32,000 bases of DNA from Dickeya solani IPO 2222 (GCF_001644705.1 NZ_CP015137.1:2610001-2642000), one strand, 5' to 3'. Positions 3-16,883 are shown, counted from the stretch's first letter. Numbers and translations are program-made. Notes: generated by a model from the sequence alone, not told the origin.

Positions 3-839
3 GCCGACCTGAAAACCAAAGACCTGCTGGAGCCGCTGAAAGTCGTCGAACAAAACGGCCATCTTGATTTAGCGTCACGACTGCGCCAGCGCGTCACCGA
101 TATTATGCGTTACGCGGTGCAGAATGACCTGATAGAGCGCAACCCCGCGCAAGACCTCTCCGGCGCGATAGCCGCGCCAAAAGCTACCCATCGGCCAGCC
201 CTGAAGCTGAATAAACTGCCGGATTTTCTGGCACGGATAGAACGCCACAAAGGGCGAGCGTTAACCAAACTGGCCTTAAAACTCACGCTGTGCGTTTTTA
301 TCCGCTCCAGTGAGCTACGTTTTACCCGCTGGCCGGAAATCGATTTTAAACGTGCCATGTGGACGATACCGGCTGAACGTGAAGCCATTCCCGACGTGAA
401 GCATTCGCAGCGCGGCGCAAAGATGCGCTCTGAACATCTGGTGCCGTTATCCCGACAGGCTTTAGCGCTGCTGGAAGAGATTAAGGCCATCAGCGGTGCT
501 CATGAGCTGATTTTCCCCGGCGATCGTCGGCCAACTAAACCGATGAGTGAAAACACCGTCAACAACGCATTACGAACCATGGGCTATGACACCACTACCG
601 AAGTGTGCGGACACGGCTTCCGCACCATGGCCTGTAGCGCACTGGTGGAGTCCGGCCAGTGGTCGCGGGATGCGGTAGAGCGCCAGATGAGTCATCAGGA
701 ACGTAATGGCGTTCGTGCTGCCTACATCCACAAAGCGGAGCATCTGGATGAGCGTAGGCTAATGCTGCAATGGTGGGCGGATTATCTGGATGCGAACAGG
801 GAAGCGTATGTGGTGGCGTATGAGTATAACCCCATTTGA
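3..839 (+). CDS. int: P4-type tyrosine integrase, C-terminal part (gene begins upstream of the window)
   Basis: Frame 3 is open from nt 3 (ADLKTKDLLEPLKVVEQNGHLDLASRL...) and runs into track ORF 105..839. It carries FIRSSELRF (Arg box), HGFRT (H-x-x-R) and VRAAYIH (catalytic Tyr region). It is clearly paralogous to the integrase at 12932..14193. Confidence 0.9.
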   Translation, partial: ADLKTKDLLEPLKVVEQNGHLDLASRLRQRVTDIMRYAVQNDLIERNPAQDLSGAIAAPKATHRPALKLNKLPDFLARIERHKGRALTKLALKLTLCVFIRSSELRFTRWPEIDFKRAMWTIPAEREAIPDVKHSQRGAKMRSEHLVPLSRQALALLEEIKAISGAHELIFPGDRRPTKPMSENTVNNALRTMGYDTTTEVCGHGFRTMACSALVESGQWSRDAVERQMSHQERNGVRAAYIHKAEHLDERRLMLQWWADYLDANREAYVVAYEYNPI

Positions 840-930
840 TTGTGTTACCTATCGGGAGGTCTATCATTCCTTGCTGTAGATTAGAATAGAATAATGATAA
901 ACTGTAAAAAATAATGCATCATGTAACTAT

Positions 931-2163
931 ATGAAAATATTGGTAATAAGTGATTTGCATGTTGGAAAAACTGCCCGCGCTAAAGATTTCTGCACTCTGA
1001 GCAGTGACGCTACGTCTGCGATTACAGAGAATTTTATTGAAGATTTCAGAGAATTGGTTCAGTCAGAAAATCTCAGCGCAACACATTTATTAATCGCCGG
1101 TGATATGACGAATAGTGGGGAAATACCTGAATTTGAAATGGCAGCTGAGAGGATACAAGACATAATAAATATTTTGAGTATTGATCTCAAGAACGTTTAT
1201 TTTGTTCCTGGCAATCATGATGGAAATTGGGGGCATGAGAAAGAATCCTCAAAAAGAGGAGATAAGATAGAAAAAACTAGAGAAGCAAAATATCTTAATA
1301 TAAAAAGCAATGATTTTTTTTCGAGTGTTTTAAATAACACAAGTTTTTCTTCATATTATAAGGACCCATTCTCAGCTATTTGGGAAAGTGATAACATTAT
1401 TGTCGTTGGTGTAAACTCTTCAGCATATGATAGCTGTGATAAAGAGGTTAAGTTTGGAGAAGTCGATTTAAAATGCCTTGATGCATTACAGAAGAAGCTT
1501 CTCGAAATGAAAAAAAAGAAAGATAGACGCCTTAAAATTCTACTAACACATCATCATCCAAAAATTTATACGGATAGAACTTTTGCTGATGCAGATTTAA
1601 GTCAAATGAAGAATGCAGAGGACTTCTTACATTTTGCCAGTAAGAATGAGTTTGACTTTATCGTACATGGTCACAAACACATTCCTCGCTTTAACTTTCA
1701 AGTTGATTCAGATGGTTATGCGGTAAATATTCTTAGTGCAGGAAGTTTTAGTGCCCAATTAAAAGATTGGCATAATGGAGTTGCTAATTTTATTCATTTA
1801 ATTGAACATCATGACTTTTGTCCGGAAAATAATTATTCAAGAGGTAGGGTAATATCATGGTCATATTTTACAAATCATAAATGGAAACATTCTCAATATG
1901 ATAGAGATATGATTAACCATGAGGAGTATTTTGGAAGTGTGCTATCTAAAAATAAACTTAAAGCTATCTTGAAAAGAGAAATTTCCGAGTGGAAGGCTAC
2001 TAAAAAATATGTGAAATGGACTGATGTTGTATTGAAAGAGGATAGCTTGAAGTATTGTAACAGGATGCTATTGTCAAGTGTAATTGATGATTTGTCACAA
2101 GAGTTACAATATGAAGTAATGCCAAGTAGAAATGATGATTTTGTTTTGTTATGGGCGGAATAG
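931..2163 (+). CDS. Calcineurin-like metallophosphoesterase with an uncharacterised C-terminal extension (410 aa)
   Basis: All five MPE motifs are present: D8-L-H10, G57-D58, G94-N-H-D97, H207-H-H209, G247-H-K-H250. The DNA is AT-rich. This is the first gene of a tightly packed three-gene operon 92 nt downstream of int. Confidence 0.85.
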   Translation: MKILVISDLHVGKTARAKDFCTLSSDATSAITENFIEDFRELVQSENLSATHLLIAGDMTNSGEIPEFEMAAERIQDIINILSIDLKNVYFVPGNHDGNWGHEKESSKRGDKIEKTREAKYLNIKSNDFFSSVLNNTSFSSYYKDPFSAIWESDNIIVVGVNSSAYDSCDKEVKFGEVDLKCLDALQKKLLEMKKKKDRRLKILLTHHHPKIYTDRTFADADLSQMKNAEDFLHFASKNEFDFIVHGHKHIPRFNFQVDSDGYAVNILSAGSFSAQLKDWHNGVANFIHLIEHHDFCPENNYSRGRVISWSYFTNHKWKHSQYDRDMINHEEYFGSVLSKNKLKAILKREISEWKATKKYVKWTDVVLKEDSLKYCNRMLLSSVIDDLSQELQYEVMPSRNDDFVLLWAE

Positions 2164-2167
2164 CATT

Positions 2168-3934
2168 ATGAATTATAATGACATTAGTACACTATTCGAA
2201 AGTTCAAACGCAAGAAGCCTGAACTCAAATCAGCTTACAAGTGAATTTATCTGGACAGAATCATTTGATTTGCTTTTTTCAAGTCAAAATCAAGTTATTT
2301 TGGGATCTAGAGGGTCTGGGAAGACTGCCTTAATTAAAATGCTTTCACATGATAACCTTAGTAAATTGGCAACTCATTATCCTAAGGCTAAAGAAATAAT
2401 TGACTCAAGGAAATTTATAGCTACATACGTTCCTTTAAGAGTTGAATGGGTAAACTCTTTGAATAACTTCGAAGAGAAAAAGGAAGAGTATTTTGTTTGG
2501 AGTCTAAATTTATCTTTATGCGCTAAGCTGTTAGACACAATAAGAAGTTGCATTGATTTTTATCTATATGATGAGTTTGAACAATTTACAATCGAAAAAA
2601 ATATTTGCAAGGAAATATCAGGAATATGGTTTTCAGATAATATTTTTAATAATTTAAATTCAATCCGAGACGAGCTAGAAAGAACTGAGTATAGAAAAAA
2701 CTTAGCCTTTAATAAAGAGTCAATGAATATTGAACTATCAAATGATGAGAAAATAATCGGCGAAAGTTTTCATACTACTTTATTTAAGCCATTTGAGTAT
2801 GCGGCTAGAATTACAAAACGATTATTGAGTCTTCCGGAAGAGAGTAAATGGATTATTTGTATTGACGAAGCTGAGTTTCTAACTAAATCACATCATAAAA
2901 CGCTGAATACATTTATGCGTTCAGCAAGTGAGCTTGTTTTTAAAATTACGACTATGCCATATAGACATCATACTTTAAATACTGATGTTAATGCCAATAT
3001 TAATATTGGACATGATTTAGAGTATGTTTATATTGATAAGCTTGGGACATCACAATTAAATCAGCAAACATCGGATAAAGTAATTCAGGAGTTTGCAGAA
3101 AAGCTTTTTTTAAATCGTTTGAAATTTCATGGGGAAAATGAAATTTCATTTGAAGATCTAGTTGGAAAATCTGTTCTGACTCAATCAACACCAGATATCG
3201 CTGAGTTAAATTATGTAATTGAATTAATAAATAAGCATTGTAACGAAGAAACTGTAAAAAGGGCTGAAGTATTGTTCTCAACTAATATAGGAAGTTTTGA
3301 TGATGCGATCGTAAGAAAATTACGAGGGTTACTATTGTTAAGGGAGGAGTATAATAACAAGTCAGGAAATTCTTCATCCTCACTGTACTCGGGTGTCGCA
3401 ATTATTTCTAGATGCTCTGATGGCAATCCAAGACGGCTCTTTAGATTATTTAACCATCTTTTAAGTAATTTGAAAGAACAAAAGAATAGAATATCTAATA
3501 CTAGTCAAAGTGAGCGGTTGAAAAGTTATTCATACAGGGAGTTAGAAGTTATAAAATTTGAAAAAGATGGTGTGAATGCATTTAATTTTATAAATAAAAT
3601 AGGTGGGTATTTTAGAGATAAAAGCCTTGTGGAAAAAATAGGCACAGATACACCTCAGTCTTTCGTTATTGATGGTACGATTTCTGATGAACATTGGAAT
3701 AGCATAAAAACAGCTGTTGATTTAGGGTTGATTTACCCTTATATAAAAAAGGATAGAAATGCTAAGTCATTATTTCCATCAAGAGAGGGGCGATTTATCA
3801 TAGCTAACTGCTTGGCACCCAATTTTAACCTTTTCCCCAGAGTTGGCAGACCTGTTAGATTTCATAATATATTTCGCAATACTAATACCTCTAATGAAGA
3901 AGATCAATTGGAGCTTTTTTCTGATGAAGATTAA
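2168..3934 (+). CDS. P-loop NTPase (588 aa), family unassigned
   Basis: Walker A is ILGSRGSGKT (G46..T53). Walker B is WIICIDEAEF (D233-E234), about 180 aa later. A distal GNPRRLFRLFN motif is reminiscent of KAP/ORC-type NTPases. The ATG at 2168 lies 4 nt after the upstream stop, and the track start at 2132 would overlap gene 1. Confidence 0.8.
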   Translation: MNYNDISTLFESSNARSLNSNQLTSEFIWTESFDLLFSSQNQVILGSRGSGKTALIKMLSHDNLSKLATHYPKAKEIIDSRKFIATYVPLRVEWVNSLNNFEEKKEEYFVWSLNLSLCAKLLDTIRSCIDFYLYDEFEQFTIEKNICKEISGIWFSDNIFNNLNSIRDELERTEYRKNLAFNKESMNIELSNDEKIIGESFHTTLFKPFEYAARITKRLLSLPEESKWIICIDEAEFLTKSHHKTLNTFMRSASELVFKITTMPYRHHTLNTDVNANINIGHDLEYVYIDKLGTSQLNQQTSDKVIQEFAEKLFLNRLKFHGENEISFEDLVGKSVLTQSTPDIAELNYVIELINKHCNEETVKRAEVLFSTNIGSFDDAIVRKLRGLLLLREEYNNKSGNSSSSLYSGVAIISRCSDGNPRRLFRLFNHLLSNLKEQKNRISNTSQSERLKSYSYRELEVIKFEKDGVNAFNFINKIGGYFRDKSLVEKIGTDTPQSFVIDGTISDEHWNSIKTAVDLGLIYPYIKKDRNAKSLFPSREGRFIIANCLAPNFNLFPRVGRPVRFHNIFRNTNTSNEEDQLELFSDED

Positions 3935-4874
3935 AATACTAGATATATCTCGAACTGAATTATTAAGTTCAAAATATGACATTGCCTTTATTGGATTAGG
4001 ATATGAACCTCGTTGCACATATATCTCAAAAATACTGGATATTGATGCAGTAGGAAAAGTTGTTGCTTTTTCTTTTGTTGAGAGTAAAGAAAATTCGAAT
4101 AAAATCAAAAGCCACGAATACCTTTTAAAAAAATGGTCTAACAAAATGAATATGATAGAGTTAGAACATTCTAATGTAAAAGAAGTTTATAGTACCCTTA
4201 ATAAATATCTTTGTACGATAGAAAAAGATATTATACATATACTAATCGATTATAGCTCGATGTCCAGGAATTGGTATTCTGCTATATTGAATTATGTCAT
4301 TCGGTTCTTTCCAAAAAAAATTATTATTGACTTGGTCTATTCGTCAGCAGAATACCCAAAGAATGATGAATTTTATGATTTTGAATTAGGTGATATAAAA
4401 ATTTTACCTGGATGTGAAGGATCATCAATAACAAAGAAAAAGAAATGTGCTATTTTTATGTTGGGGTTTGATAATGTTGGCCCACAAAGTTTTTTTAACC
4501 TTTTAGAACCAGAATTAAGTTTTGGTGTTATTGCATCTCCTGGAGCATTGCCTGATTATGAAAAAATTGCTTTCACCCGTAATCAGTATTTTATAGATCA
4601 TCAGTTGTTAGAAGGTAAAAACTTACTTAAATTACCCATTTCAAGTTTAGCTGTCACATTTGAAAATTTATGCCAATTAATTCAGCCTCTTAGGGTGGAC
4701 TATAACATATCTATTATCCAGTTTGGACCAAAGCCACATATTGTTGCATCTACTTTAGCCGGTATATTTTTTGAAAATGTGAGCTGTATTTATAGTGAGT
4801 ATAATAGATCAAAACCTTTTGATGTTGTACATAATGGTGAGCTGGTTATATCAAGAATATTCTCTGATAAGTGA
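3924..4874 (+). CDS. Hypothetical protein (316 aa), third gene of the MPE/NTPase operon
   Basis: It is a long ORF in the same AT-rich codon style. The ATG at 3924 (MKIKILDISR...) follows GGAG at 3910..3913 and overlaps the NTPase stop by 11 nt. I recognise no motif. The alternating hydrophobic/helical pattern suggests an alpha/beta fold. Confidence 0.65.
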   Translation: MKIKILDISRTELLSSKYDIAFIGLGYEPRCTYISKILDIDAVGKVVAFSFVESKENSNKIKSHEYLLKKWSNKMNMIELEHSNVKEVYSTLNKYLCTIEKDIIHILIDYSSMSRNWYSAILNYVIRFFPKKIIIDLVYSSAEYPKNDEFYDFELGDIKILPGCEGSSITKKKKCAIFMLGFDNVGPQSFFNLLEPELSFGVIASPGALPDYEKIAFTRNQYFIDHQLLEGKNLLKLPISSLAVTFENLCQLIQPLRVDYNISIIQFGPKPHIVASTLAGIFFENVSCIYSEYNRSKPFDVVHNGELVISRIFSDK

Positions 4875-5278
4875 TACGGAAGTGTTTTATTTAAAACGCA
4901 CGATGTCAATGGTGTGTATTTACTGATGAATAACTAGGTTATCATTTTATTCTTAGATGAGAAAATAAATTTTTTAGAATGAGTCTATACAGGTTGATTA
5001 CTATTATTTAAACTTTTTTTGGAAAATAATTATGATTTTTAGATTGTAAATTTTAATGGCTAAAATAAATTTGCTGGTTTTTATTGAAAAGGGTGAAGTA
5101 CAATGCGCGATGTGAAATCACTGATGATAATTATTAAATACCATAACAAAAAAATTACAACCCACTTTCATGTTGCTATTTAGAATCATTGCCATGAAAT
5201 TTTCAAGCCATTCAATAGCTATTATTGATTTCTATACCGCGCCAGCTTTTTTTTAGGAGGGGCTGACGCTCATTTTTC

Positions 5279-5542
5279 TTATGTGGATGATTTTTCCTGC
5301 GACTCATAATACCCACGTATCATTTCTGCCAGATCGTCTTCCACCGTATAAAAATAGCAAGCCGGAACCCGTAACACCGATGCTAACCGGCAGGCGAGTT
5401 CAAAATCCGGTGTGTGGATGCCGCGCTCATATTGATTCATGCGAGCGCTGGCCGTCGCTTCATCAATTCCGGCAAGAATACCTAAGCGTTCCTGTGACAG
5501 ACCGGCTTTTACACGTGCGGCTTTTAAGCGATGAGGTAGCAT
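5279..5542 (-). CDS. XRE-family helix-turn-helix repressor (87 aa)
   Basis: The sequence LKAARVKAGLSQERLGILAGIDEATASARMNQYERG is a typical HTH_3. The start at 5542 is preferred because GGGGA lies 6 nt upstream, and the track start at 5581 has no SD. Confidence 0.8.
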   Translation of the reverse strand: MLPHRLKAARVKAGLSQERLGILAGIDEATASARMNQYERGIHTPDFELACRLASVLRVPACYFYTVEDDLAEMIRGYYESQEKSST

Positions 5543-5590
5543 GAGAATCCCCGTTTTTGACTGACTTGCCGCGATTCTCATCTGTGCGTC

Positions 5591-5619
5591 TTGAAATTAT
5601 ACTAAGTAATACTTAGTAT
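5591..5619. promoter_or_regulatory. Divergent promoter/operator: 21-bp perfect palindrome overlapping a sigma70-like promoter
   Basis: ATACTAAGTA-A-TACTTAGTAT (5599..5619) is a perfect 10+1+10 inverted repeat. TTGAAA (5591..5596) and TAGTAT (5614..5619), 17 nt apart, resemble -35/-10 boxes for the + strand Ner-like gene. Confidence 0.5.
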
Positions 5620-5659
5620 TTAGTGTGTCTGTTTACATGAGGTCTTAACGGGGGAAGAT

Positions 5660-5947
5660 ATGACACCACATAATGACTGGCATCCAGCGGATATTGTTGC
5701 TGCTTTACGAAAACGAGGTACTAACGTGTCGGCGCTGTCACGCTCGGCAGGACTCAGTTCATCAACGCTTGCCAATGTATTTTCCCGTCCGTGGCCGAAA
5801 GGGGAATGGCTTGTGGCAACGGCGCTGGACGTGCATCCTGCTGAAATCTGGCCCAGCCGCTATTTTGATGCTTCTGGTATGCTACAGGACAGGAAACCGC
5901 GAAGAGGAAAAGGGCCAGATGGAGAGAGTGAAAAATCTGTTATCTGA
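5660..5947 (+). CDS. Ner/Nlp-family DNA-binding protein (95 aa)
   Basis: DWHPADIVAALRKRGTNVSALSRSAGLSSSTLANVFSRPWPKGEWLVATALDVHPAEIWPSRY matches the Mu Ner / E. coli Nlp (SfsB) pattern as I remember it. A strong SD (GGGGGAAG) precedes the ATG. Confidence 0.85.
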   Translation: MTPHNDWHPADIVAALRKRGTNVSALSRSAGLSSSTLANVFSRPWPKGEWLVATALDVHPAEIWPSRYFDASGMLQDRKPRRGKGPDGESEKSVI

Positions 5948-6179
5948 TGAATCATCAGTAACTATCTATTTTTCAAATGAATACCTGCATATACAGGCTG
6001 CGGGGAAAGCGCTGTTAACTATTCCACTCAAAAACTTCCCACGTCTTGAACGTGCTACGGTCGAGCAGCGGAATAATTTCAGGTTGAGTTATCGCGGTGT
6101 ACATTGGGAAACGCTTGATGAAGATATAAATATTGGGGCGCTTTATGCTGGCGCAATCAAGGATATGACCAACCAATAA
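5919..6179 (+). CDS. DUF2442-like small protein (86 aa)
   Basis: This is the C-terminal part of track ORF 5673..6179. It has the DUF2442-type pattern IPLKNFPRLERATVEQRNNFRLSYRGVHWETLDEDINIGAL. The ATG at 5919 follows GAGGAAAAGGG. The N-terminal 82 codons of the track ORF overlap the Ner-like gene out of frame. Confidence 0.55.
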   Translation: MERVKNLLSDESSVTIYFSNEYLHIQAAGKALLTIPLKNFPRLERATVEQRNNFRLSYRGVHWETLDEDINIGALYAGAIKDMTNQ

Positions 6180-6197
6180 TGTGTTAGTCATCTGGGG

Positions 6198-6400
6198 TTT
6201 CCCCCACATTGTCCCCACTTCGTGAGGGATCATTTCTTCCCCCACCTGATTTTTATGATTACGCTAAAAATGATTATTTATTATATAGTTAAATTATTCC
6301 CCCACTTTGCGCCTATATACCGCCGGGAAGTGGGGGAGTGTTCAGGACATTATGGGCAGAGACACAATCACTCCCTCTTTTCCCCCGATTAATCCCCCAC
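6198..6400. repeat. Iteron cluster (TCCCCCAC-type) flanking an AT-rich block; putative replication origin
   Basis: CCCCCAC or near-copies occur at 6201..6207, 6213..6218, 6239..6245, 6299..6305, 6382..6386 (degenerate) and 6394..6400. One inverted copy, GTGGGGG, lies at 6330..6336. An AT-rich stretch at 6250..6298 sits between them. The cluster is immediately 3' of the RepA-like gene. Confidence 0.55.
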
Positions 6401-7467
6401 TTTATTGCGTTGCGATAAGGGCATAATGCGTTCACCGTCAAAGGCGATCAGGCCATCCTTTTCCAGCTTGTCCAGCCAGCGGGTGAATTTCTTGTTCACA
6501 TCAAACCCCATTGCTCTCATATCATCTCGCACGAGTGAACGAGTGCAGCCTTCACCGTTGGCCGTGCGTGAGCGAATAGCCTGCCATAGGGCGAAATGAT
6601 TTTCCGTCAGCCGCGAAATACCCGCTAAATCGGGGTCGCTGGCAACATCAACTTCTTTGACCTCACGGCCTTCATCGTTCAGCACCAGTGAAGTAATCTG
6701 GTCACCATCATCATCCACGTACAGATCGACGACATTCAAGTCATAGGCGCGACGTAGCGGCTCTTCCGCATCCTTCATCTTGGTGCAACTGAGAATCAAC
6801 GCACCACCTTCACCTTCACGCCTTACGTTAAATTCCACGTCCAGCGCGGCACGAAAGGCGCTGGAGCCTCGCGCCCCTTTGTCCTGTCTTTACCGGAATG
6901 ATGGATAATCAGCACGGTAGCCTGTGTCGCTGCTTTGATCGCATCGCATCCCTGAATGAAAGCGCCCATATCTTTAGCCGCATTCTCATCCGAACCGCCA
7001 AAACAGCGGGCGAGCGTATCCAGAATAATCAGACGAACCGGCATACCGGAGGCGACTTTTACATCCTGGGCGGCGTGTATTACCTGCTGTACGCTCTCCG
7101 GGCTGGCCGGAAAAATCGGGCAATCGACGCGATAAAGCGCATCAATCGGGCTACCGCCGTTAAGCGTCTGCTCCCATGCCCGGATACGGCGGGGAACACC
7201 GATCCCGCCTTCTCCGACCACATAAATCACTGCGCCCTGTGTTACGGGCTTGCCTGCCCAGGGTTTGCCGGTGGCGATATGGCATCCCCACGATACCGCC
7301 AGAAAAGACTTATACGAACCGCTGGCACCGTAGGCACTGGCAACAGATGAACTCGGCAGAAAGCCTTTAATCAGGTAGTCCTGGCGGGTATCAAAACCGT
7401 CAGATCCTTTGCGCAGGGGGAGAGAGGTTCTGAATTCTGCTTCGGTATCCGTTACGAATTTACTCAT
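6389..7467 (-). pseudogene. RepA-like (AAA_25 / RecA-fold) replication ATPase, split by a frameshift
   Basis: Track ORFs 6823..7467 and 6389..6838 are two halves of one protein. The upstream half ends HHSGKDRTKGREAPAPFVPRWTWNLT. An alternative frame of the same DNA reads KGARGSSAFRAALDVEFNVRREGEG and joins the downstream half. The Walker A-like sequence is GASGSYKS and the Walker B-like sequence is LIILD. Confidence 0.7.
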
Positions 7468-7681
7468 CGATTAGCTTCCCCGCTTGCTGTACTCCATCGC
7501 GTTTGCCGATACGCTCAGCAATCCAGTCATTCACTTCGCTTTCCAGCCATGCCACAGAGCGGGAGCCGATTTTAACCGTCTGAGGAAACTCTCTCTGCTT
7601 CATCAGCAGGTAAATCCATGACTTTTTCAGTCCGGTTTTTTTCATCACACCCGATAAGCGAATTAACGTAATATCCGTCAT
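7460..7681 (-). CDS. alpA: AlpA-family prophage/island transcriptional regulator (73 aa)
   Basis: LIRLSGVMKKTGLKKSWIYLLMKQREFPQTVKIGSRSVAWLESEVNDWI is typical of AlpA (MerR-like HTH). The ATG at 7681 follows AGGAGG with a 7-nt spacer, and the track start at 7687 is a TTG. Confidence 0.85.
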   Translation of the reverse strand: MTDITLIRLSGVMKKTGLKKSWIYLLMKQREFPQTVKIGSRSVAWLESEVNDWIAERIGKRDGVQQAGKLIDE

Positions 7682-7683
7682 GA

Positions 7684-8562
7684 TCAATCCTCCTTCCGGG
7701 TGTAAACCCGCTCAACATACCGTCCCCGGCCATCACCATGCCCGAGATCCATGGATGTTAATGCTCTGGCTTCACTGCGGGAAAAACCCTGTGACAGGTA
7801 ATAACGAGTGGCATCCTGTGCCCATGCGTAGCGCAGGCTGTGCGGGGAATAGTGGCCGGTCAGCCCCAAGCGTGTGGTATGCGTGCGCCAGAAGTTCATG
7901 GCGGTTTTCAGGTCGGGTTTATCTATCAGCCTGCCGTTACGCGCCTCAGCCACCTTTAGCGCCTCTTTCACTGCTCGTTGAATCGCTTCGCGATTGATAA
8001 TCCGGGTTTCGCGTGGCCTGCCGCCTTTGGTGCCAAATACCACGGTAAGTGTCTGTTGATGGTGCTCAAGCTGTTTTTCCCATGTTTCTAGCGAGCTGGC
8101 GCATTGCACCGCTTCCTGAGAACGCAGCCCCAGCAATCGGGCAAGCTGAATTGCGCAGGCAAGCCCTTTATCATGCTGTTGCGCCGCGAGCAGAACGGCC
8201 TGATAGCGTTCATCCGGGATGGCAAATTTTGTCCCGGCACGGTTTGCACCGCTCAGCCCCAGCGCGTTATTGGTCAGGCGGTCGGACGCTGCGAGCTTTT
8301 CCCTTCCTCCCTGTTTAAACACCGTGCGCAGCGCTGCCATTTCGTTGTGAAGGGTACGAATGGCAATGCGTTGTGACAGGCGTTCGGTGACATAACTTTC
8401 GATATGTCTGGCTTTGAGGTACTTAACGTCACGCACCTGAATATTCATTGCCAGTAGATGACGGCAAAGCCTGTCCATGATGCGGATACGATCATGAACC
8501 GTCTTGTAGCTCCCGCCAGCTTGTTTCGCCAGCGTGGTCATTTCACGACTTAATTTACTCAT
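7684..8562 (-). CDS. Tyrosine-recombinase-like (phage integrase family) protein (292 aa)
   Basis: The sequence has ARLLGLRSQEA (Arg), HSLRYAWA (H-x-x-R) and GHGDGRGRYVERVY (Tyr region). The stop lies 2 nt before the alpA ATG, which makes an operon int-like > alpA > repA-like. Confidence 0.75.
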   Translation of the reverse strand: MSKLSREMTTLAKQAGGSYKTVHDRIRIMDRLCRHLLAMNIQVRDVKYLKARHIESYVTERLSQRIAIRTLHNEMAALRTVFKQGGREKLAASDRLTNNALGLSGANRAGTKFAIPDERYQAVLLAAQQHDKGLACAIQLARLLGLRSQEAVQCASSLETWEKQLEHHQQTLTVVFGTKGGRPRETRIINREAIQRAVKEALKVAEARNGRLIDKPDLKTAMNFWRTHTTRLGLTGHYSPHSLRYAWAQDATRYYLSQGFSRSEARALTSMDLGHGDGRGRYVERVYTRKED

Positions 8563-8876
8563 GCAACTTCCCCCTAATATTCAACTGGATGCTTTTCTCT
8601 GGCGCGTGGGAAAAGGCAGACACAATCAAATTGACCTGCCTTGAACGATACCTGTGCGCCAGAGCGGAAAGCAGTTGAGGTCTTGGGAGGTGTCGGCTAT
8701 GCACTCGGTGCGGCCGCCCGCAGTTGCAGGTTTTCCTCTCAGGCTGTTAGGCCTGCCTCGGTATCGGTTTAATCTCCTGTAAAAAAAGCGATCAGTCCGG
8801 CACAAACGGGTGTGTCAGATTCATGACGCATGGGTTGACGTGGCTTATCTCGGGGGTTGATGCAGTCTCAGGCTGC

Positions 8877-8915
8877 GGCGTCACTTTCATCCGTTGGCAC
8901 GGAAAAAGTGACGCC
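8877..8915. other. Strong extended hairpin in non-coding leader DNA
   Basis: GGCGTCACTTT (8877..8887) pairs perfectly with AAAGTGACGCC (8905..8915). Inner CCGT (8891..8894) pairs with ACGG (8899..8902). No T-run follows on either strand, so this is not a classical terminator. Confidence 0.6.
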
Positions 8916-9570
8916 GGTGCAGACGTTGCAGGCAGGCGCATAGCAGATGCCTGACGGCATAGCAGCGCGCAGCCAGCACGTTCACACGTGCAGACGCTAA
9001 TCATTGAGACGAAAAAGTCGAAGTTGCACGATAACGTGAACTTACAAGAATAAGCGCTGTTTAAGTCGCCTATGAGGTGAAATCACCACAACGATAAATA
9101 TTGCAGCTACAGGCCAGATCCTACGGTATGGAGGCCGCTCTCTGGCTAGGTATAATGAAGCCCACGGCATTGTTGGGCTTATAGTTAAGTCAAACGGACC
9201 TTAATCACCACGCTCGCAACGGCGTTCAAACGACCCGGTGATCTCTGCTTCCAAAGGCTGGCAGATTTATCACAACGCAACTGTGCGTGTTCTTCCTTGC
9301 AGGCTACGGAAGTGTTTGTGGTCACCCGCAGGCGTCAGTCTCAGACCACGCTCCATTCCCTATGACTTTGGCGTTGTGACCACCCGAAGGCGTTTCTCAC
9401 GGGTCACTCGTATCATCCTGATACTGGAAACATTGGCGGCTGTCATCGACAGCGGTGTTGCGTGGATAAAATTACGACAGAATTTTGCAGACTTCAAGTA
9501 GTTTGAATATTCATCAAAAGGGAGTAATCTAGCACTAAGTGCTATAGTTAAGGGATGGAATGCTGGCCTG

Positions 9571-9930
9571 ATGCGTGTATTCAAAACCAAATGGTTCACT
9601 AAGGCGGCTAAATCCCACGCTATCAAGGATAGCGAGTTATGTCAGGCCATTGAGGCGGTGACTCAGGGGAAAGCTGATGATCTCGGCGGCGGCGTTTACA
9701 AGAAACGTTTTAACCAAAACCGCGATCGCGCCATCATACTGGCGAAAGGTGGGGAACATTGGTTTTACACGTTCCTGTATGCCAAGCAGGATATGGCGAA
9801 CATTGATGATCGTGAACTGGCAGGGTTCCGCGAACTGGCGAAGCACTATGCCAACCTTGCCGATGAAAAGATTACAGCACTGATTAAGCGTAAAGAACTG
9901 GTGGAGATTTGCCATGACTGCAAAAAGTAG
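9571..9930 (+). CDS. RelE/ParE-superfamily toxin (COG4737/DUF1044-like, 119 aa)
   Basis: The pattern FKTKWFTKAAK...DDLGGGVYKKRF...FLYAKQDMANIDDRELAGFRELAKHY matches this toxin family as I remember it. The gene overlaps the downstream HTH gene by 17 nt. Confidence 0.8.
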   Translation: MRVFKTKWFTKAAKSHAIKDSELCQAIEAVTQGKADDLGGGVYKKRFNQNRDRAIILAKGGEHWFYTFLYAKQDMANIDDRELAGFRELAKHYANLADEKITALIKRKELVEICHDCKK

Positions 9931-10237
9931 ATTCAAAAGCCCGGCATTTGAGGCGATTCACAGCGCCGCGTCTGGCTTATTCAGCGTTGATGCCATCCCA
10001 CAAGAAACGATGCGCAATTTTGACAAAGCGTGTCTTAACAGTGTCGAGTCTCTTCAGCCACTGGAAATTAAAGCGCTGCGTGAGAAGTTAAACGTCAGCC
10101 AGCCGGTTTTTGCCCGTTACCTGAACACCAGTGTTTCGACGGTGCAGAAATGGGAAAGCGGCGTAAAACGCCCTAGCGGGTTATCGCTGAAACTGCTTAC
10201 GGTAGTGCAGAAGCATGGGTTGAAGGTGTTGGTTTGA
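9914..10237 (+). CDS. HTH (XRE/COG2944, NadS/MqsA-C-terminal-like) antitoxin (107 aa)
   Basis: LREKLNVSQPVFARYLNTSVSTVQKWESGVKRPSGLSLKLLTVVQKHG is the typical C-terminal HTH of the cognate antitoxins. The gene is coupled to the toxin gene. Confidence 0.8.
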   Translation: MTAKSRFKSPAFEAIHSAASGLFSVDAIPQETMRNFDKACLNSVESLQPLEIKALREKLNVSQPVFARYLNTSVSTVQKWESGVKRPSGLSLKLLTVVQKHGLKVLV

Positions 10238-10628: not shown

Positions 10629-11360
10629 ATGTTAAATTATACAGTAATACCTGAGCAGCCCCCTATTGGTTCAGGTACTTATGGATTAGTTGAAAAAGTT
10701 CATTTAAAGAATGGGCACGGCGGTTTATGCAATGAATATGGCTACGCACGTAAAACGCTAATTAATACAAATAATGATCCTGACCTTGTTCAGCGCTTTA
10801 TTAGAGAAATCCGTGCTCAAGATGATTGTTTGCATAAGCATGTTGCACAGATTTTCATATGCGACTTACAGTCCAATCCCCCTTGGTTTATCATGGAGCT
10901 TGCTGAAAGCAGTCTTGAAGAAGAGATTTCAAACAGTGCACTCTCAACGCAAAAAAAAATTGAAATCATAAAGATGATTCTAAAAGGACTAGCATTCATT
11001 CATTCTAAAGGATTTTTGCATAGGGACATTAAACCCCAGAATATTTTGAGATTCCCCGGTGGTATATATAAGCTAACTGATTTTGGACTAGCGAAAAATA
11101 TAAACCCTACAAGAACACAATTTGCTACTAAAGTTGGTGTTTTCTTGGGTACACCAAAATATTTTGATTATGAAATATTTGTTAATGGCTATTCGAATCA
11201 ATCAGACATATACTCAATTGGTGTCCTTCTTGAAGACTTATACTTTGAAGGTCTTGATGATATAATCGCGAGATGTAAACATAGACGTCTTAACAAACGC
11301 TATATAAACGTTAATCAAGTATTGAATGCTATCGAGGAATTAGAGGTGAAGATTAAATGA
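10629..11360 (+). CDS. Minimal Hanks-type Ser/Thr protein kinase (243 aa, kinase domain only)
   Basis: The G-loop is IGSGTYGLV (13..21) and the conserved Lys is in YARK (K42). The catalytic loop is HRDIKPQN (131..138), followed by DFG (151..153) and GTPKYFDYE (174..182). An SD (AAAGGGGAAAG) precedes the ATG. The DNA is AT-rich. Confidence 0.9.
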   Translation: MLNYTVIPEQPPIGSGTYGLVEKVHLKNGHGGLCNEYGYARKTLINTNNDPDLVQRFIREIRAQDDCLHKHVAQIFICDLQSNPPWFIMELAESSLEEEISNSALSTQKKIEIIKMILKGLAFIHSKGFLHRDIKPQNILRFPGGIYKLTDFGLAKNINPTRTQFATKVGVFLGTPKYFDYEIFVNGYSNQSDIYSIGVLLEDLYFEGLDDIIARCKHRRLNKRYINVNQVLNAIEELEVKIK

Positions 11361-12100
11361 TAAAACTACTAGGCTCTTCATCATTTACTTACTCTAAAAA
11401 TGGAATTGATGAAAACCAAGATTGCATTCTTCCTTTTAAAAGGGTGAATGACGGTTTCATGATAGCAGTTGCTGATGGTGTTGGCGGTTACGAAGGGGGG
11501 CTTGACGCTTCATCTTTAGCAGTATCTCAGCTTGAAAAAGTTTATTTTTCATTTAATCGCTCTGATGTCGATAATTTCTTCCATAATTTAAAGGGAAGGC
11601 TGAAAGAGCTATCCAAAAATAATCCAATATTTTTTTCTGCCGCAACCACACTAACATTTTGCTATATTGATAAGAAAGGATTGATGGTTGGGCATTGTGG
11701 AGATTCCAGGCTTTATATTAAGGCCGAAAATAAGCTCGTACAAATAACGAAGGATCAAACCCAGCATCAGATTTTAATTGACAAAGGATTATACACATCG
11801 AGGCAACTCCGTAATCTTATGGGCGGCAATGTTTTAACAAGTGCAATTTCAGCCAAATTAGATTTAGAGTATCAGGTTATAGAAATTCCTACTGAAAACC
11901 TCCCTCTTCAAAATGGAAGCCTAAATATTTTCATTATGTCTGATGGCGCACATTATTATTGGGAAGAACGCCCCCGATTTTCAGAAAAAACTATGGATAA
12001 TCCAGCAAAGTTTGCTGCCAGCTTGCAAAAAAGGATTGAAACCAAAGGACCTCATGATGATTTTTCTTTAGTCTGTCTTAAAGTTAGCTATAAACAATGA
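11357..12100 (+). CDS. PP2C-family Ser/Thr phosphatase (247 aa)
   Basis: The PP2C motifs are AVADGVGG (D40-G41), GHCGDSRLY (D116), IMSDGAHY (D196-G197) and HDDFSLV (D234-D235). The start overlaps the kinase stop (ATGA). Confidence 0.85.
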   Translation: MIKLLGSSSFTYSKNGIDENQDCILPFKRVNDGFMIAVADGVGGYEGGLDASSLAVSQLEKVYFSFNRSDVDNFFHNLKGRLKELSKNNPIFFSAATTLTFCYIDKKGLMVGHCGDSRLYIKAENKLVQITKDQTQHQILIDKGLYTSRQLRNLMGGNVLTSAISAKLDLEYQVIEIPTENLPLQNGSLNIFIMSDGAHYYWEERPRFSEKTMDNPAKFAASLQKRIETKGPHDDFSLVCLKVSYKQ

Positions 12101-12931: not shown

Positions 12932-14193
12932 ATGGCGCTTACTGATATCAAAGTCAGAACAGCCAAGCCTTCGGATAAGCAATACAAGCTGACCGACGGC
13001 AGTGGTATGTATCTGCTGGTTCACCCCAATGGCTCAAAGTATTGGCGCTTACAGTACCGTTTTGGCGGTAAACAGAAGATGCTGGCACTGGGGGTTTATC
13101 CTGATGTCTCTCTGGCTGATGCCAGAGCGCGTCGTGATGAAGCGCGTAAGTTATTGGCAAACGGCACTGACCCCGGCGACAAAAAGAAATCCGATAAGAT
13201 TGAACAAAGTGAAGCGTTAACCTTTAAAGAGGTGGCAATAGAATGGCACGCCACCAATAAGAAATGGTCGCAAGAGCACAGTCATCGTGTGCTGAAAAGC
13301 CTGGAAGATAACCTTTTCTCAGCAATAGGCAAACGCAACATCGCCGAGCTTAAAACCCGTGACCTGCTAGCGCCCATCAAAGCGGTAGAGCAGTCAGGCC
13401 GCCTTGAAGTCGCCTCACGGCTCCAGCAACGCACAACCGCGATAATGCACTACGCCGTACAAAGCGGATTAATCGACTACAACCCGGCGCAGGAAATGGC
13501 AGGGGCGGTGGCGTCCAGCAATCGGCAGCATCGCCCGGCACTGGATCTAAAGCGCACGCCCGAACTGCTCCGGCGTATCGATAACTACACCGGCAGACCA
13601 TTAACCCGTCTGGCGGTCGAACTGACGCTATTGATTTTTATCCGCTCCAGCGAACTGCGCTTTGCACGCTGGTCAGAGATAGATTTTGATACCGCCATGT
13701 GGACGATTCCCCCGGAACGCGAATCCATCGACGGTGTAAAACACTCTCACCGTGGCTCAAAAATGCGTACTCCGCATCTGGTGCCGCTTTCCCGGCAGGC
13801 GCTGGCGACGTTGAAACAAATCCAGCAATTTAGCGGCGACCATGAGCTTATCTTTATTGGCGATCACGACCCGCGTAAACCGATGAGTGAGAACACGGTG
13901 AACAAAGCGCTGCGGGTGATGGGATATGACACCAAGGTTGAAGTCTGCGGCCACGGTTTTCGCACCATGGCCTGTAGCTCGTGATCGAGTCGGGCTTATG
14001 GTCGCGTGACGCTGTACAGCGCCAGATGAGCCATATGGAGCGTAACTCGGTACGTGCGGCCTACATCCACAAAGCCGAGCACCTGGATGAACGCAAACTG
14101 ATGCTGCAATGGTGGGCGGATTATCTCGATGCGAATCGGGAGAGGGCAGTGAGTGCGTTTGATTTTGGGAAAGTTAGTAATCAACTAAAATAG
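12932..14193 (+). pseudogene. int: P4-type tyrosine integrase disrupted by a 1-nt frameshift before the catalytic Tyr region
   Basis: Track ORFs 12932..13984 and 13981..14193 are contiguous halves. The first ends ...GHGFRTMACSS-stop and the second begins IESGLWSRDAVQRQMSH..VRAAYIH. Integrase 1 reads through the equivalent position (ACSALVESGQWSRDAVERQMSH). The N-terminus MALTDIKVRTAKP...YWRLQYRFGGKQK is the typical DUF4102 arm-binding domain. Confidence 0.85.
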
Positions 14194-14519: not shown

Positions 14520-16883
14520 ATGGCTAACACTAACTTTTCTCAAACTGCTGCCTTTATCTGGTCAGTTGCTGACCTGCTTCGTGGCGATTTTAAGCAATCT
14601 CAGTATGGGCGCGTGATTCTGCCTTTTACCCTGCTGCGTCGGCTTGAGTGCGTGTTAGCCGCGAGTAAAGAAGCGGTGGTAGCGGAAGCTGAAAAACTAA
14701 AGGCCAGCCCTTTGCCGGAAGAAGGGAGAGAGAAGTTTTTGTTACGCGCCACTCATGGCCTGTCGTTCTTCAATACCTCGCCAATGGATCTTGGCAAGAT
14801 GGGGCAGAACGATATTAAGGCGAATCTGGAGAATTACGTTCAGTGTTTCTCGAAGGATGCGCGTGAAATCTTTGAACACTTCAAGTTTAGTGAGTTTGTT
14901 GGCCTGCTGGATGACGCCAATTTACTGTTCAAAATCGTTAAAAAGTTCGCCACTACGGACCTGAGCCCGAAGGCCATTTCCAACCATGAAATGGGGTTGG
15001 TGTTTGAAGAGCTGATTCGTCGTTTTGCGGAAAGCTCGAATGAAACGGCGGGGGAGCACTTTACTCCACGCGATATCGTACGTTTAACGACCTCTCTGGT
15101 GTTTATGGAAGATGATGCTGCGTTATCTAAAGACGGTATCATTCGCACTATTTACGACCCCACTGCCGGTACGGGCGGCTTCCTCTCTTCGGGTATGGAA
15201 TATGTGCACGAGCTTAACCCGAATGCGGTGATGCGTGCGTTTGGTCAGGAACTGAACCCCGAGTCTTACGCCATCTGTAAAGCCGATATGCTGATTAAAG
15301 GGCAAGATGTTAGCCGTATCAAACTGGGCAACACCCTTTCTAACGATCAACTACCGCAAGACCAGTTCGACTATATGCTGTCGAATCCACCGTTTGGTGT
15401 GGACTGGAAAAAGATTGAAGGTGAAATTAACGATGAGCATCAACTGAAAGGCTTTAACGGCCGTTTTGGTCCGGGCTTGCCTCGCGTCTCTGATGGTTCT
15501 CTGTTGTTCCTTCTGCATCTGATCAGCAAGATGCGTGATACCCATAATCCAGATGGTTCAATCAATGGTGGTGGGCGCATCGGTATTATCCTTAACGGCT
15601 CTCCGCTGTTTACCGGTGGTGCGGGTAGCGGTGAGAGCGAAATCCGTCGCTATATTCTGGAAGCTGATTTGCTGGAAGGCATTGTCGCGCTGCCGACGGA
15701 TATGTTCTACAACACCGGGATTGCGACTTACGTTTGGATTCTGTCGAATAAGAAAGCACCAGAGCGTAAAGGTAAGGTCCAACTGATTGATGGCACTAGC
15801 TTGTGCGGCAAGATGCGTAAGTCTCTGGGTTCCAAGCGCAATCTGATGGGTGAAGAGGACATCAAACTTATCACCCGCACGTTTGGTGATTTTGAGGCGG
15901 TTGATGCGATTTCTCTTGAAGCGTTAGGCCTTGAAAAAGCAGCGGAGCAAAAATCCAACCGTGGGCGCCAATCTGCAACGGCAAAAACGGAAGCCCCGAA
16001 AACCTTCGCCAGCAAAATCTTCAACAGTACCGATTTTGGGTATCGCCGCCTGACCATTGAGCGTCCGCTGCGCCTGTCTGCACAGATTACCGATGAAGCG
16101 ATTGCCAGCCTGCGCTTTGCGCCGAAGCCATTTAATGCCCCGATGGAGCGCCTGTTTGACGAATTCGCTTCGCAGTGGCAGGAAGCTCACTACGGTGACT
16201 TTACAGAAATTGAAGCGGAAGCTCGCGCGATTATCAAAGCGGAATTTGAGGAGTTGAAAGAGAAGCAAATTAAAGATCTGCTAGACAGAAAACAGTGGCT
16301 GGCACAGCACGCGTTAATGGAAAAAGCGCATCAGATTCAAGCGGCGTTAGGCACACAAGCCGGTGGGAAAACGCAGGTCAGCGACGATTTTAACCAGTTT
16401 CAGCTTACCCTGAAAGGGGCGATCAAAATCGCAGGCGTTAAGCTCGATACCAAAGAGAACAAACAGTTTATCGACGCGATTACCACGAAAAACCCGGCTG
16501 CCGAACCGGTGATAAAAAAAGTGTTGAAGGAAGACGTTCAGCCGCTATACGGCGCGTTTGAGTACCAAGGGAAAGTGGTGGAATTCGAGCAGGATGGCGA
16601 TTTGCGGGATAACGAGAACGTGCCGTTGAATCCAGCGGTTTCCATCAGCGAACTCATTGAAAGCTACTTCAAAGCGGAAGTTCTGCCGCACGTGGCCGAT
16701 GCCTGGATTAATGCCGATAAGCGCGATGCTAAAGATAATGACGTGGGAATCGTGGGCTATGAGATTCCGTTTAACCGCCATTTCTACGTTTATCAGCCAC
16801 CGCGCCCGCTGGAAGAAATTGATGCTGATTTGGATGCGGTAAGCGCCGAAATAATGAAGCTGTTGCAGGAGGTACATTCCTGA
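14520..16883 (+). CDS. hsdM: Type I restriction-modification methyltransferase subunit M (long form, 787 aa)
   Basis: The HsdM N-terminal pattern is [32 protein letters not shown]. The SAM motif is DPTAGTGGF and the catalytic motif is NPPF ([10 protein letters not shown]). The C-terminal sequence is [23 protein letters not shown]. Confidence 0.95.

Follow-up and report, generated by a model that had tools for sequence, protein, structure and literature searches.

A candidate methylation-linked defence cassette of calcineurin-like phosphoesterase, ORC/Cdc6-clade ATPase and tandem CARF protein in Dickeya solani

Amongst described bacterial defence systems, the closest to the locus considered here is PUA-Cal-HAD of E. 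coli ECOR28. This system is triggered by Dam-derived m6-dAMP, which is freed as phage degrades Dam-methylated host DNA; its PUA-Cal protein has been shown to convert dNDP to dNMP (deoxynucleoside di- to monophosphate) and to cleave NAD+, and related Calcineurin-CE systems are noted to be associated with N6-adenine methylases in the absence of restriction enzymes (PMC12871103). In this paper we analyse an operon of three genes, designated A, B and C and together referred to as the cassette, in a 32,000-nucleotide stretch of the genome of Dickeya solani IPO 2222 (NZ_CP015137.1:2610001-2642000). This stretch is the window, and all positions are counted from its first letter. The genes encode a calcineurin-like metallophosphoesterase (A), an AAA+ ATPase of the ORC/Cdc6 clade (B) and a protein with tandem CARF-like domains (C). 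An initial annotation made from the sequence alone had taken the operon for an undescribed defence-type system. The operon does lie in a defence-island setting, but the protein families have been catalogued, so that 'experimentally uncharacterised and unnamed' is the description that fits.

In its catalytic domain A comes nearest, amongst NCBIfam profiles, to the PUA-Cal-HAD effector, with motif spacing that seems to agree, and both systems have a link to N6-adenine methylation, which involves host Dam in PUA-Cal-HAD and either a Dam-like gene in cis or, presumably, host Dam in the cassette and its relatives. The likely output is also shared, being predicted here as nucleotide or NAD+ hydrolysis leading to abortive infection. 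The two systems differ in architecture, however. A lacks the N-terminal PUA-like sensor, its phosphoesterase domain starting at once, and carries a C-terminal wHTH (winged helix-turn-helix) domain; there is no adjacent HAD gene, the only conserved partners being B, C and a methylase; and the cassette has instead an AAA+ ATPase of the ORC/Cdc6 type, with a CARF/SAVED-like protein encoded separately.

C links the cassette to the SAVED protein Cap4 of CBASS and to the CARF effectors of type III CRISPR systems (Csm6, Can2, Cam1 and Csa3), having a double CARF fold in one chain, as SAVED proteins do, together with a ligand signature. Unlike those systems, the cassette has no CD-NTase, Cas10 or other cyclase conserved nearby, and C is not fused to an effector. 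No CBASS cyclase model has a match in the operon, and no cyclase is found among the recurrent flanking families of the loci surveyed below. Likewise, no cas family recurs in those flanks and no cas gene is present among the scanned open reading frames (ORFs) of the window, although singleton cas genes in single loci were not exhaustively excluded.

Type 1 BREX resembles the four-gene form of the cassette in combining an N6-adenine methylase with an ORC/Cdc6-clade AAA+ ATPase carrying a wHTH and a phosphatase-superfamily protein (PMC12839542). The components are nevertheless different: a Dam/D12 methylase as against PglX, a 588-residue ATPase as against the 1200-1300 residues of BrxC, and a calcineurin-like protein as against the alkaline-phosphatase-like PglZ. 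BrxA, BrxB and BrxL are absent, and there is no PADLOC match to any Brx or Pgl protein. RADAR pairs an AAA+ ATPase ring with an enzyme acting on free adenine nucleotides, and its ring ATPase RdrA is the best structural match of B; this likeness is at the level of fold only (TM ~0.25), and the cassette is without the RdrB deaminase, whilst RADAR is without a CARF-type sensor or methylase. DpnII-type restriction-modification (R-M) systems, which act at GATC, come into the comparison because DpnM and Dam are the nearest relatives of the methylase in the four-gene form, which has retained the residues with which they contact DNA. They differ in that the cassette has no recognisable restriction endonuclease and that the window operon has no methylase; no restriction endonuclease, Brx or Pgl profile matches A, B or C, and the relatives that possess the methylase also have no restriction endonuclease.

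Scans of PADLOC-DB v2, NCBIfam release 20 and PHROGs with A, B and C gave no system-level match and no NCBIfam equivalog. The initial annotation had been unable to map the triad onto Lamassu, Gabija, Septu, PARIS, Ppl, Wadjet, Hachiman or Shango, and the PADLOC-DB v2 models for these eight systems indeed have no match to any of the three proteins at E<=1. In PADLOC, A matches only the CBASS 'Effector' model (1e-8) and PDC-S10 (1e-6); the matches of B all had E >0.01 and were ignored. Since all three proteins have curated models (PF24389, PF24408 and CARF6, names that come from computational surveys), the families were catalogued earlier and the operon has very probably been seen before. A full-text literature search found no experimental work and no system name, the only relevant items being the PUA-Cal-HAD preprint and a BREX survey; the two likeliest surveys lie outside the coverage of that search. 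The cassette belongs with the Calcineurin-CE effector systems and, more broadly, with the CARF/SAVED-sensor systems, and is not categorically new. What emerges from the present analysis, with no match in the searchable literature, is the pattern of presence and absence of the methylase and the dependence on host Dam that it implies.

Three coupled genes and the families of their products

The three genes are co-directional and coupled, the ORF list and the translation agreeing with the junctions as first annotated: 4 nt separate the stop codon of A (2163) from the ATG of B (2168), and the ATG of C (3924) overlaps the stop codon of B (3934) by 11 nt. For B, the ORF list also offers a second in-frame ATG upstream, at 2132, and for C it offers 3843. 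The start of B at 2168 is backed by an identical 588-residue D. solani protein (P0078), and deposited D. solani proteins identical to B and to C support the start codons chosen here. Because the deposited counterpart of C (P0001) has 317 residues, translation of C may begin one codon upstream, at the TTG at 3921. The motifs originally named in A and B all translate as quoted and are invariant or nearly so across 28-32 homologues.

In A these motifs are SDLH, GD, GNHD, HHH and GHKH, and residues D8, H10, D58, N95, H96, D97, N162, H207-209, H246, H248 and H250 are invariant in 28 homologues. A matches the Pfam family Metallophos (PF00149) at 1e-17, over the cutoff, and is a member of the calcineurin-like superfamily. 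Its catalytic domain covers approximately residues 1-285, followed by a wHTH at approximately residues 330-400. The C-terminal extension had been thought to contain no known motif but corresponds to Pfam PF24408, 'wHTH-Calcineurin_assc', which is detected in 9 of the 28 A orthologues (best E-value 5.5e-14). A occupies the presumed effector position in an operon conserved with an ATPase and a putative sensor, with a wHTH associated, as expected of a Calcineurin-CE protein.

The top NCBIfam match of A is NF053862, 'DS9_1 anti-phage phosphoesterase' (1.6e-30). This match covers the catalytic domain only, running from residue 3 of A and over positions 196-445 of the 486-position model, and the layout of the model fits the PUA-Cal protein of the PUA-Cal-HAD system. 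The catalytic residues of PUA-Cal are D207/H209, D255, N367, H420 and H462/H464 (PMC12871103). Compared without an alignment to PUA-Cal, the spacing of D8/H10, D58, N162, H209 and H248/H250 in A is consistent with this layout, and the invariant N162 may be the counterpart of the substrate Asn of PUA-Cal, N367. A is described here as a predicted effector of the Calcineurin-CE type.

The second-best NCBIfam match of A is SbcD, at 5e-7. When a profile of the 28 orthologues was compared with PDB sequences, Lmo2642 was matched at 2e-12 and Rv0805, GpdQ and Icc at ~1e-5, as against 0.007-0.07 for the nucleases Mre11, SbcD and MPE, with Mre11/SbcD at 0.007-0.03. Lmo2642 and Rv0805 are cyclic-nucleotide phosphodiesterases. 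On these profile E-values A is more likely a nucleotide phosphodiesterase or phosphohydrolase than a nuclease, so that the original label of a nuclease/phosphodiesterase-type enzyme holds better for its second half than for its first. A nuclease of the Mre11/SbcD type was demoted from first choice on the same values and stays as the weaker alternative.

B matches Pfam PF24389, 'ORC-CDC6-like', at 6e-98 (329 bits against a cutoff of 27). The alignment runs from residue 9 to 564 of B and from position 2 to 570 of a model with 571 positions, making B a full-length member of the family, and NCBI and UniRef name many of its homologues 'ORC-CDC6 family AAA ATPase'. GSRGSGKT, CIDE and GNPRRLFRLFN are all confirmed in the translation, and G46, G49, G51, K52, T53, D233, E234, D418, N420 and R422 are strictly invariant; within the G419-N-P-R422 motif only G419 and P421 fall short of this. 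The initial annotation had left GNPRR unexplained and regarded the C-terminal half of the protein as unknown, but PF24389 extends over both, and GNPRR, which lies in a helix of the structural model, is read as sensor 2, which we take to be equivalent to the GDAR(R/K) motif of Orc1/Cdc6.

The AlphaFold2 (AF2) model of B has a predicted local distance difference test score (pLDDT) of 82.9 and includes a helical lid and, at residues 440-570, a secondary-structure pattern like that of a winged helix. Foldseek with this model returned RdrA of RADAR as the best match (3e-3, prob 0.96-0.98), followed by Orc1/Cdc6 (2qby, 1fnn), MalT and MuB. At the level of sequence, no solved relative was found for either B or C. 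With its motifs intact, B is a predicted ATPase that may serve as an ATP-dependent switch or an oligomeric scaffold.

C, an orphan partner of unknown family in the initial annotation, matches the PADLOC model PDLC01912, 'CARF6--CARF_CARF_CARF', at 7e-165 over residues 1-314 and positions 1-311 of the 312-position model; Pfam and NCBIfam scans gave no match. Its AF2 model, built with 30 homologues (pLDDT 93.5, predicted TM-score 0.91), has two α/β halves, which form tandem CARF-like Rossmann domains at residues 1-143 and 158-314. In Foldseek searches one half aligns with the CARF domains of Csm6 (1.9e-5, root-mean-square deviation (rmsd) ~4 Å), Cam1, Csa3 and Can2, whilst the whole chain aligns with the SAVED protein Cap4 over 304 columns (2e-3); one homologue of C is named as a SAVED domain protein in UniRef. 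The CARF ligand signature has been defined as [DN]x[ST]xxx[RK] (PMC4012209). It is fitted by D109-Y-S-S-M-S-R115 of C, directly after the strand at residues 103-109, and an invariant GPKPH loop lies in the equivalent place in the second half. These pocket residues are invariant, whether a lineage has the methylase or lacks it.

Clustered at 50% identity, the C family comprises 344 clusters at E<=1e-30, rising to 1,375 at E<=1e-10, and the members of the best 150 clusters are all stand-alone proteins of ~310 residues. C is thus a stand-alone tandem CARF protein with a SAVED-like architecture. Proteins of this kind serve as ligand sensors in known systems, and we read C as a predicted nucleotide-ligand sensor. 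The possibility that C is an S-adenosylmethionine-dependent methyltransferase was considered and rejected, as fold matches to such enzymes overlay badly, with an rmsd of 13-20 Å over the full length, and the CARF signature is present.

Distribution of the cassette and its Dam-like fourth gene

A pattern scan of one genome per species yielded 43 loci, which were then examined by tblastn and ORF clustering. Co-occurrence of the three genes outside D. solani, on which the first reading depended, is borne out in 28 complete loci from at least 8 phyla, where A, B and C are found in the same order and on the same strand. The hosts are Gamma- and Betaproteobacteria, Acidobacteriota, Verrucomicrobiota, Planctomycetota, Chloroflexota (Dehalococcoidia), Nitrospirota, Bacteroidota, Gemmatimonadota and Desulfobacterota. 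Across these loci the gap between A and B has a median of 4.5 nt, and in 22 of the 28 the start of C overlaps the end of B. Named hosts include Klebsiella, Enterobacter, Serratia, Vibrio cholerae, Proteus and the plant pathogens Dickeya and Pectobacterium.

Where a locus has no A or no B, it is a contig end or a decayed copy. Shewanella atlantica (L004:3975-5209) and Pseudoalteromonas maricaloris (L005:3977-5214) have a split A, and B is split in a metagenome-assembled genome (MAG) of the Korobacteraceae (L023:2419-4340). In L022 (6510-6998) B is reduced to its last 162 residues and adjoins an N6_N4 methylase; in L040 (6018-7516) C is truncated by an IS30-like transposase and adjoins a type I R-M system; and L041 adjoins a GmrSD gene.

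The 103 flanking proteins fall into 135 Pfam families, none of which recurs more than three times (integrase three times, HipA and transposase twice each). Since the flanking genes are thus unrelated between loci, the cassette is self-contained and mobile. All-against-all clustering of 1,510 ORFs from the 43 loci and the window identified a single additional conserved gene, which encodes a methylase, the other multi-locus clusters being short antisense ORFs inside B or C. Neither this clustering nor the Pfam scan of the 103 flanking proteins revealed a conserved cyclase or a fifth gene. A tblastn search with B as query gave no homologue among 50,697 phage and 72,556 plasmid records, and comparison of the C model with the viral fold library BFVD gave only generic Rossmann and methyltransferase matches, with no phage look-alike. 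The window operon has no DNA match in 5,426 complete E. coli genomes (megablast and blastn), nor does the operon of the Klebsiella clade in complete E. coli genomes (megablast only).

The methylase gene, of ~275 codons, is present in 23 loci, comprising every complete cassette outside one methylase-less clade plus the Korobacteraceae locus with the split B. It was invisible to the initial annotation because the lineage of the window lacks it. The product is a D12-class N6-adenine DNA methylase (Pfam, 1e-43 to 1e-53), whose nearest relatives of solved structure are DpnM (1e-44) and then E. coli Dam (8e-28), and which PADLOC ranks best as a type II R-M methylase (5.9e-68). When aligned with E. 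coli Dam, it retains N120, G121, L122, R124, N126, N132, P134 and DPPY. The retained residues presumably include those that contact GATC in the Dam-DNA structure, and the methylase is probably GATC-specific, which is a reasonable inference from its sequence.

The gene lies directly upstream of A, except in two Bacteroidota loci and one from the Longimicrobiales (Gemmatimonadota), where it lies directly downstream of C and is still tightly coupled (L025:7915-8748, L028:7916-8743 and L031:5472-6305). That it has moved and yet kept its coupling favours functional linkage over chance adjacency.

In a neighbour-joining tree of B, the loci without the methylase (the window, L001, L002 and L004-L009) form a monophyletic group. 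The methylase is present in every complete locus outside Enterobacterales, Vibrionales and Alteromonadales. Named matches of B or C with at least 41% identity all come from Enterobacterales, Vibrionales, Alteromonadales or Aeromonadales, with the exception of one MAG labelled 'Pseudomonadota bacterium', and Gammaproteobacteria outside these orders, namely Methylobacter (L037) and Motiliproteus (L034), retain the methylase. All four orders are known to carry a chromosomal dam gene. The best reading of these sequences is that the ancestral cassette had four genes and that the lineage of the window lost the methylase; the simplest explanation of the loss would be that host Dam substitutes for it in trans.

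Competing explanations of the cassette

That the cassette has a defence or conflict function of some kind is, judging from its sequences, highly probable. Amongst the specific possibilities we favour, whilst giving it somewhat less than an even chance, a methylation-linked, nucleotide-sensing defence cassette of the Calcineurin-CE effector class, with host Dam acting in trans. According to this proposal the methylase or host Dam would write a barcode on DNA, and infection would generate a methylation-linked nucleotide cue, the likeliest being mono- or oligonucleotides that bear N6-methyladenine (m6A) and derive from degraded methylated DNA. C, as a CARF/SAVED-type protein, would bind the cue, taking the place of the PUA domain of PUA-Cal-HAD; B would assemble or activate A; and A would hydrolyse dNDP, NAD+ or related nucleotides. 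The idea of the trigger is borrowed from PUA-Cal-HAD, since the Calcineurin-CE effector of that system responds to m6-dAMP. As no HAD is present, we speculate that the scheme would require either substrates of the NAD+ type or NTPs hydrolysed beforehand by B. Which component senses what, the ligand, the substrate of A and the dependence on host Dam are what we infer from this comparison.

Several points weigh against the proposal. A scores only 106 bits against NF053862, far under the equivalog cutoff of 420, so that A shares the effector domain of PUA-Cal but is not its orthologue. The window copy of A matches PF24408 weakly (E 0.05), its wHTH being recognised through other members of the family. 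PUA-Cal needs its HAD partner for dNTP depletion, and the cassette has no HAD. Foldseek also gives weaker, poorly superposing matches of C to Rossmann-fold methyltransferases, and to our knowledge the ligands of CARF and SAVED proteins are cyclase products, none of them a methylated nucleotide. Loss of the methylase was a single evolutionary event, and because the correlation with Dam-encoding hosts therefore has n=1, the pattern is suggestive but not statistical. Finally, winged-helix domains on A and B suit direct recognition of DNA, which fits a restriction-like scheme better.

Such a scheme, either restriction-modification-like or a minimal version of BREX, is the main rival. Here the Dam-type mark would denote self; B and the wHTH of A would read unmethylated (GATC) DNA, such as phage DNA outrunning Dam; A would cut as an Mre11/SbcD-type nuclease, or B would block replication; and C would tune the response. 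It explains the methylase as well as the favoured proposal does: the Dam/DpnM-like gene lies inside the operon in 23 four-gene loci, its best solved relative is the methylase of the DpnII R-M system, and PADLOC places it with type II R-M. An ORC/Cdc6-clade ATPase together with a methylase and a phosphatase-superfamily protein is, moreover, what BREX is built around (PMC12839542), and the winged helices present in both A and B are in keeping with the scheme. Calcineurin-fold DNA nucleases exist, and Mre11, SbcD and MPE are amongst the weak matches of A. The scheme accounts less well for the affinities of A, which is nearer to nucleotide phosphodiesterases and the Calcineurin-CE hydrolase than to nucleases by 5-10 orders of magnitude, and for the sensor, as a conserved, dedicated CARF/SAVED ligand sensor would have no obvious role. 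No BREX, R-M nuclease or other restriction profile matches A, B or C, and a barrier based on GATC would be weak in Dam-encoding orders because incoming phage DNA would usually stem from Dam+ hosts and be methylated already. We consider restriction of this kind unlikely, though it deserves to be kept in view.

In its three-gene form the cassette might also respond to a trigger that has nothing to do with methylation, A again being the effector. C might sense another nucleotide, made by the host or arising from infection (RNA fragments with 2',3'-cyclic phosphates, the cyclic oligonucleotide product of an unlinked cyclase or a phage product), or B might sense DNA or a phage protein, as a STAND NTPase would. 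The triad does stand without the methylase as a unit in a large clade, B resembles the STAND/ORC-type sensors MalT and RdrA, and the closest solved relatives of A, Lmo2642 and Rv0805, act on cyclic nucleotides. A precedent for a CARF domain with a non-cyclase ligand is that of RtcR, which reportedly responds to damaged tRNAs (PMC7790460). What this explanation leaves unaccounted for is the coupled methylase of every complete cassette outside the clade, retained even where it has been relocated, and the confinement of the methylase-less clade to Dam-encoding orders; we regard it as less probable again than restriction.

Least probable of all, and in our view a distant outsider, is that the cassette is not a defence effector system. 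It would then act in signal quenching or counter-defence, with C sequestering cyclic oligonucleotides as a sponge or cutting them as a ring nuclease and A, as a phosphodiesterase, finishing them off, or else in housekeeping or island-maintenance nucleotide metabolism. Stand-alone CARF proteins such as Crn1 are ring nucleases, A groups with cyclic-nucleotide phosphodiesterases and the cassette has no linked cyclase; a ring nuclease of the SAVED type has also been reported from a virus (PMC12751052). A quencher would not be expected to require an AAA+ ATPase and a DNA methylase, however, and the phage and plasmid records are without a B homologue, as BFVD is without a phage look-alike of C. A housekeeping role sits poorly with the patchy distribution, variable flanks, AT-rich island site and frequent decay of the cassette.

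Stated in full, the methylation-linked, nucleotide-sensing proposal would make the cassette the second reader of a 'methylome-derived danger signal', and one with no structural relation to the first. C, a CARF/SAVED-type protein independent of any cyclase, would sense m6A nucleotides or short oligonucleotides from degraded Dam-marked DNA, and the ORC/Cdc6 ATPase would switch on a Calcineurin-CE effector that destroys nucleotides or NAD+; lineages in hosts without Dam would bring their own Dam-like methylase, whilst the enterobacterial lineage, with the D. solani copy in it, would borrow host Dam. We think it rather doubtful that every part of this version is correct.

Genomic setting and implications

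The coordinates of the cassette and its neighbours are collected in Table 1. The initial annotation had placed the operon 92 nt after an integrase; the adjacency is correct but the spacer is 91 nt. Its reading of the operon as AT-rich acquired cargo agrees with the composition, the G+C fraction being 0.317 over 931-4874 as against 0.554 over 1-840 and 0.515 over 5601-10000, and with the adjoining integrase. A scan of 700-5700 for consensus promoters returned 27 sites, compared with 23.5±5.2 in shuffled sequence, and listed no plus-strand site within the 840-930 spacer, so that the promoter is not located; a terminator scan gave no convincing intrinsic candidate after the operon. Since these results are indistinguishable from those for shuffled sequence, we make no claim about transcript boundaries.

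Table 1. Features of the cassette and of the surrounding island in the window
Feature	Position	Strand	Basis or remark
Tyrosine integrase (P4-type), 3' part	105-839	+	Cut by window start; Pfam Phage_integrase 4.7e-20; marks the island, outside the system
AT-rich spacer, presumed promoter and ribosome-binding site region of A	840-930	+	Sequence read
Gene A, 410 residues, calcineurin-like metallophosphoesterase with C-terminal wHTH, predicted effector	931-2163	+	Profiles, motifs
Gene B, 588 residues, ORC/Cdc6-clade AAA+ ATPase, predicted switch or scaffold	2168-3934	+	Pfam PF24389, AF2, Foldseek
Walker A of B, GSRGSGKT	2303-2326	+	Translation, conservation
Walker B of B, CIDE	2858-2869	+	Translation, conservation
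GNPRRLFRLFN of B, read as sensor-2/lid motif	3422-3454	+	Family conservation, model helix 421-432
Gene C, 316 residues, stand-alone tandem CARF (SAVED-like), predicted nucleotide-ligand sensor	3924-4874	+	PADLOC CARF6, AF2, Foldseek
CARF signature D109-Y-S-S-M-S-R115 of C	4248-4268	+	First CARF domain, after core strand 4
G268-P-K270-P-H272 loop of C, invariant, with conserved basic residue	4725-4739	+	Second CARF-like domain, equivalent strand
AT-rich non-coding tail of acquired segment	4875-5278		Reaches convergent XRE-type HTH gene
XRE-type HTH gene, convergent to operon	5279-5581	-	ORF list, Pfam
AAA_25 gene, apparently split	6389-7467	-	ORFs 6823-7467 and 6389-6838
Ser/Thr kinase and PP2C-type phosphatase, AT-rich gene pair	10629-12100		4-nt overlap
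Second P4-type integrase	12932-14193		12932-13984, continuing in another frame at 13981-14193; probably frameshifted
hsdM	14520-16883		Type I R-M, complete system
hsdS	16883-18310		Type I R-M
hsdR	18307-21555		Type I R-M
RhuM-family/PADLOC PDC-S05 gene	21612-22652
Insertion sequence (IS) integrase-core fragment	22777-23193
HNH_2-domain protein	30386-31162	-	9.5e-14; higher-G+C far end of window

Of the cargo genes that follow the P4-type integrase in the window, those of the cassette come first. A Serratia island (L001) has a full 418-residue integrase directly upstream of the triad and shares its backbone with the window. Beyond the cassette follow, in order, the XRE regulator, AAA_25, Integrase_1, the Ser/Thr kinase with PP2C, the second integrase, the type I R-M system, the RhuM/PDC-S05 gene and the IS fragment. 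The defence-island setting is supported by the R-M system, the RhuM/PDC-S05 gene and the kinase, which resembles Stk2 and PD-T4-6. In PADLOC this kinase matches mad6 (3.6e-40), PD-T4-6 (5e-33) and Stk2 (1e-22), and the kinase/phosphatase pair may constitute a further small defence module of the first island.

The two P4-type integrases are paralogous, and their homologous 3' ends form a 181-nt direct repeat (643-823 and 13982-14162, 78% identity). The two paralogues and the repeat suggest that two islands were joined in tandem at a single attachment site; the window contains no tRNA gene. Both ORFs of the AAA_25 gene match a single 678-residue ORF of the Serratia island (L001:9207-11243), and the gene is probably a frameshifted replication/primase-type island gene.

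Related cassettes are found in comparable surroundings. In a clade with 46% identity (Klebsiella, Enterobacter and Citrobacter) the cassette lies at the variable end of a CP4-57-like island, with AlpA, an anti-restriction gene, RadC and CbeA/CbtA before it and HNH_2 and ScoMcrA-like genes after it. In the Klebsiella and Enterobacter islands L045-L048 the HNH_2 genes are likewise 3' of the cassette, and a DUF4942 gene (7654-8487) is always immediately 5' of the triad, following the CbeA/CbtA toxin-antitoxin pair. The Vibrio cholerae copy adjoins a mobilisable element. Overall, the neighbours of the relatives include type I R-M, GmrSD, AbiH, HipA and HNH_2/ScoMcrA-like genes as well as mobilisable elements.

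CARF and SAVED sensors are understood almost wholly as receivers of cyclase-made second messengers. Here, a large CARF-type family that crosses phyla is found without a cyclase and is tied to a Calcineurin-CE phosphoesterase and an ORC/Cdc6 ATPase, and in the ancestral form also to a Dam-like methylase. If the methylation-linked proposal were true, no CARF/SAVED protein before C would have been shown to read a ligand that is modified and not made by a cyclase, and the cassette would be a defence system that outsources one of its components to a housekeeping enzyme, Dam. The question bears on what such sensors read, on whether methylation-derived nucleotides may serve as a general alarm beyond PUA-Cal-HAD and on how far defence may depend on host Dam. 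As the hosts of the cassette extend from Klebsiella to Dickeya and Pectobacterium, it is also of relevance for phage therapy and biocontrol.

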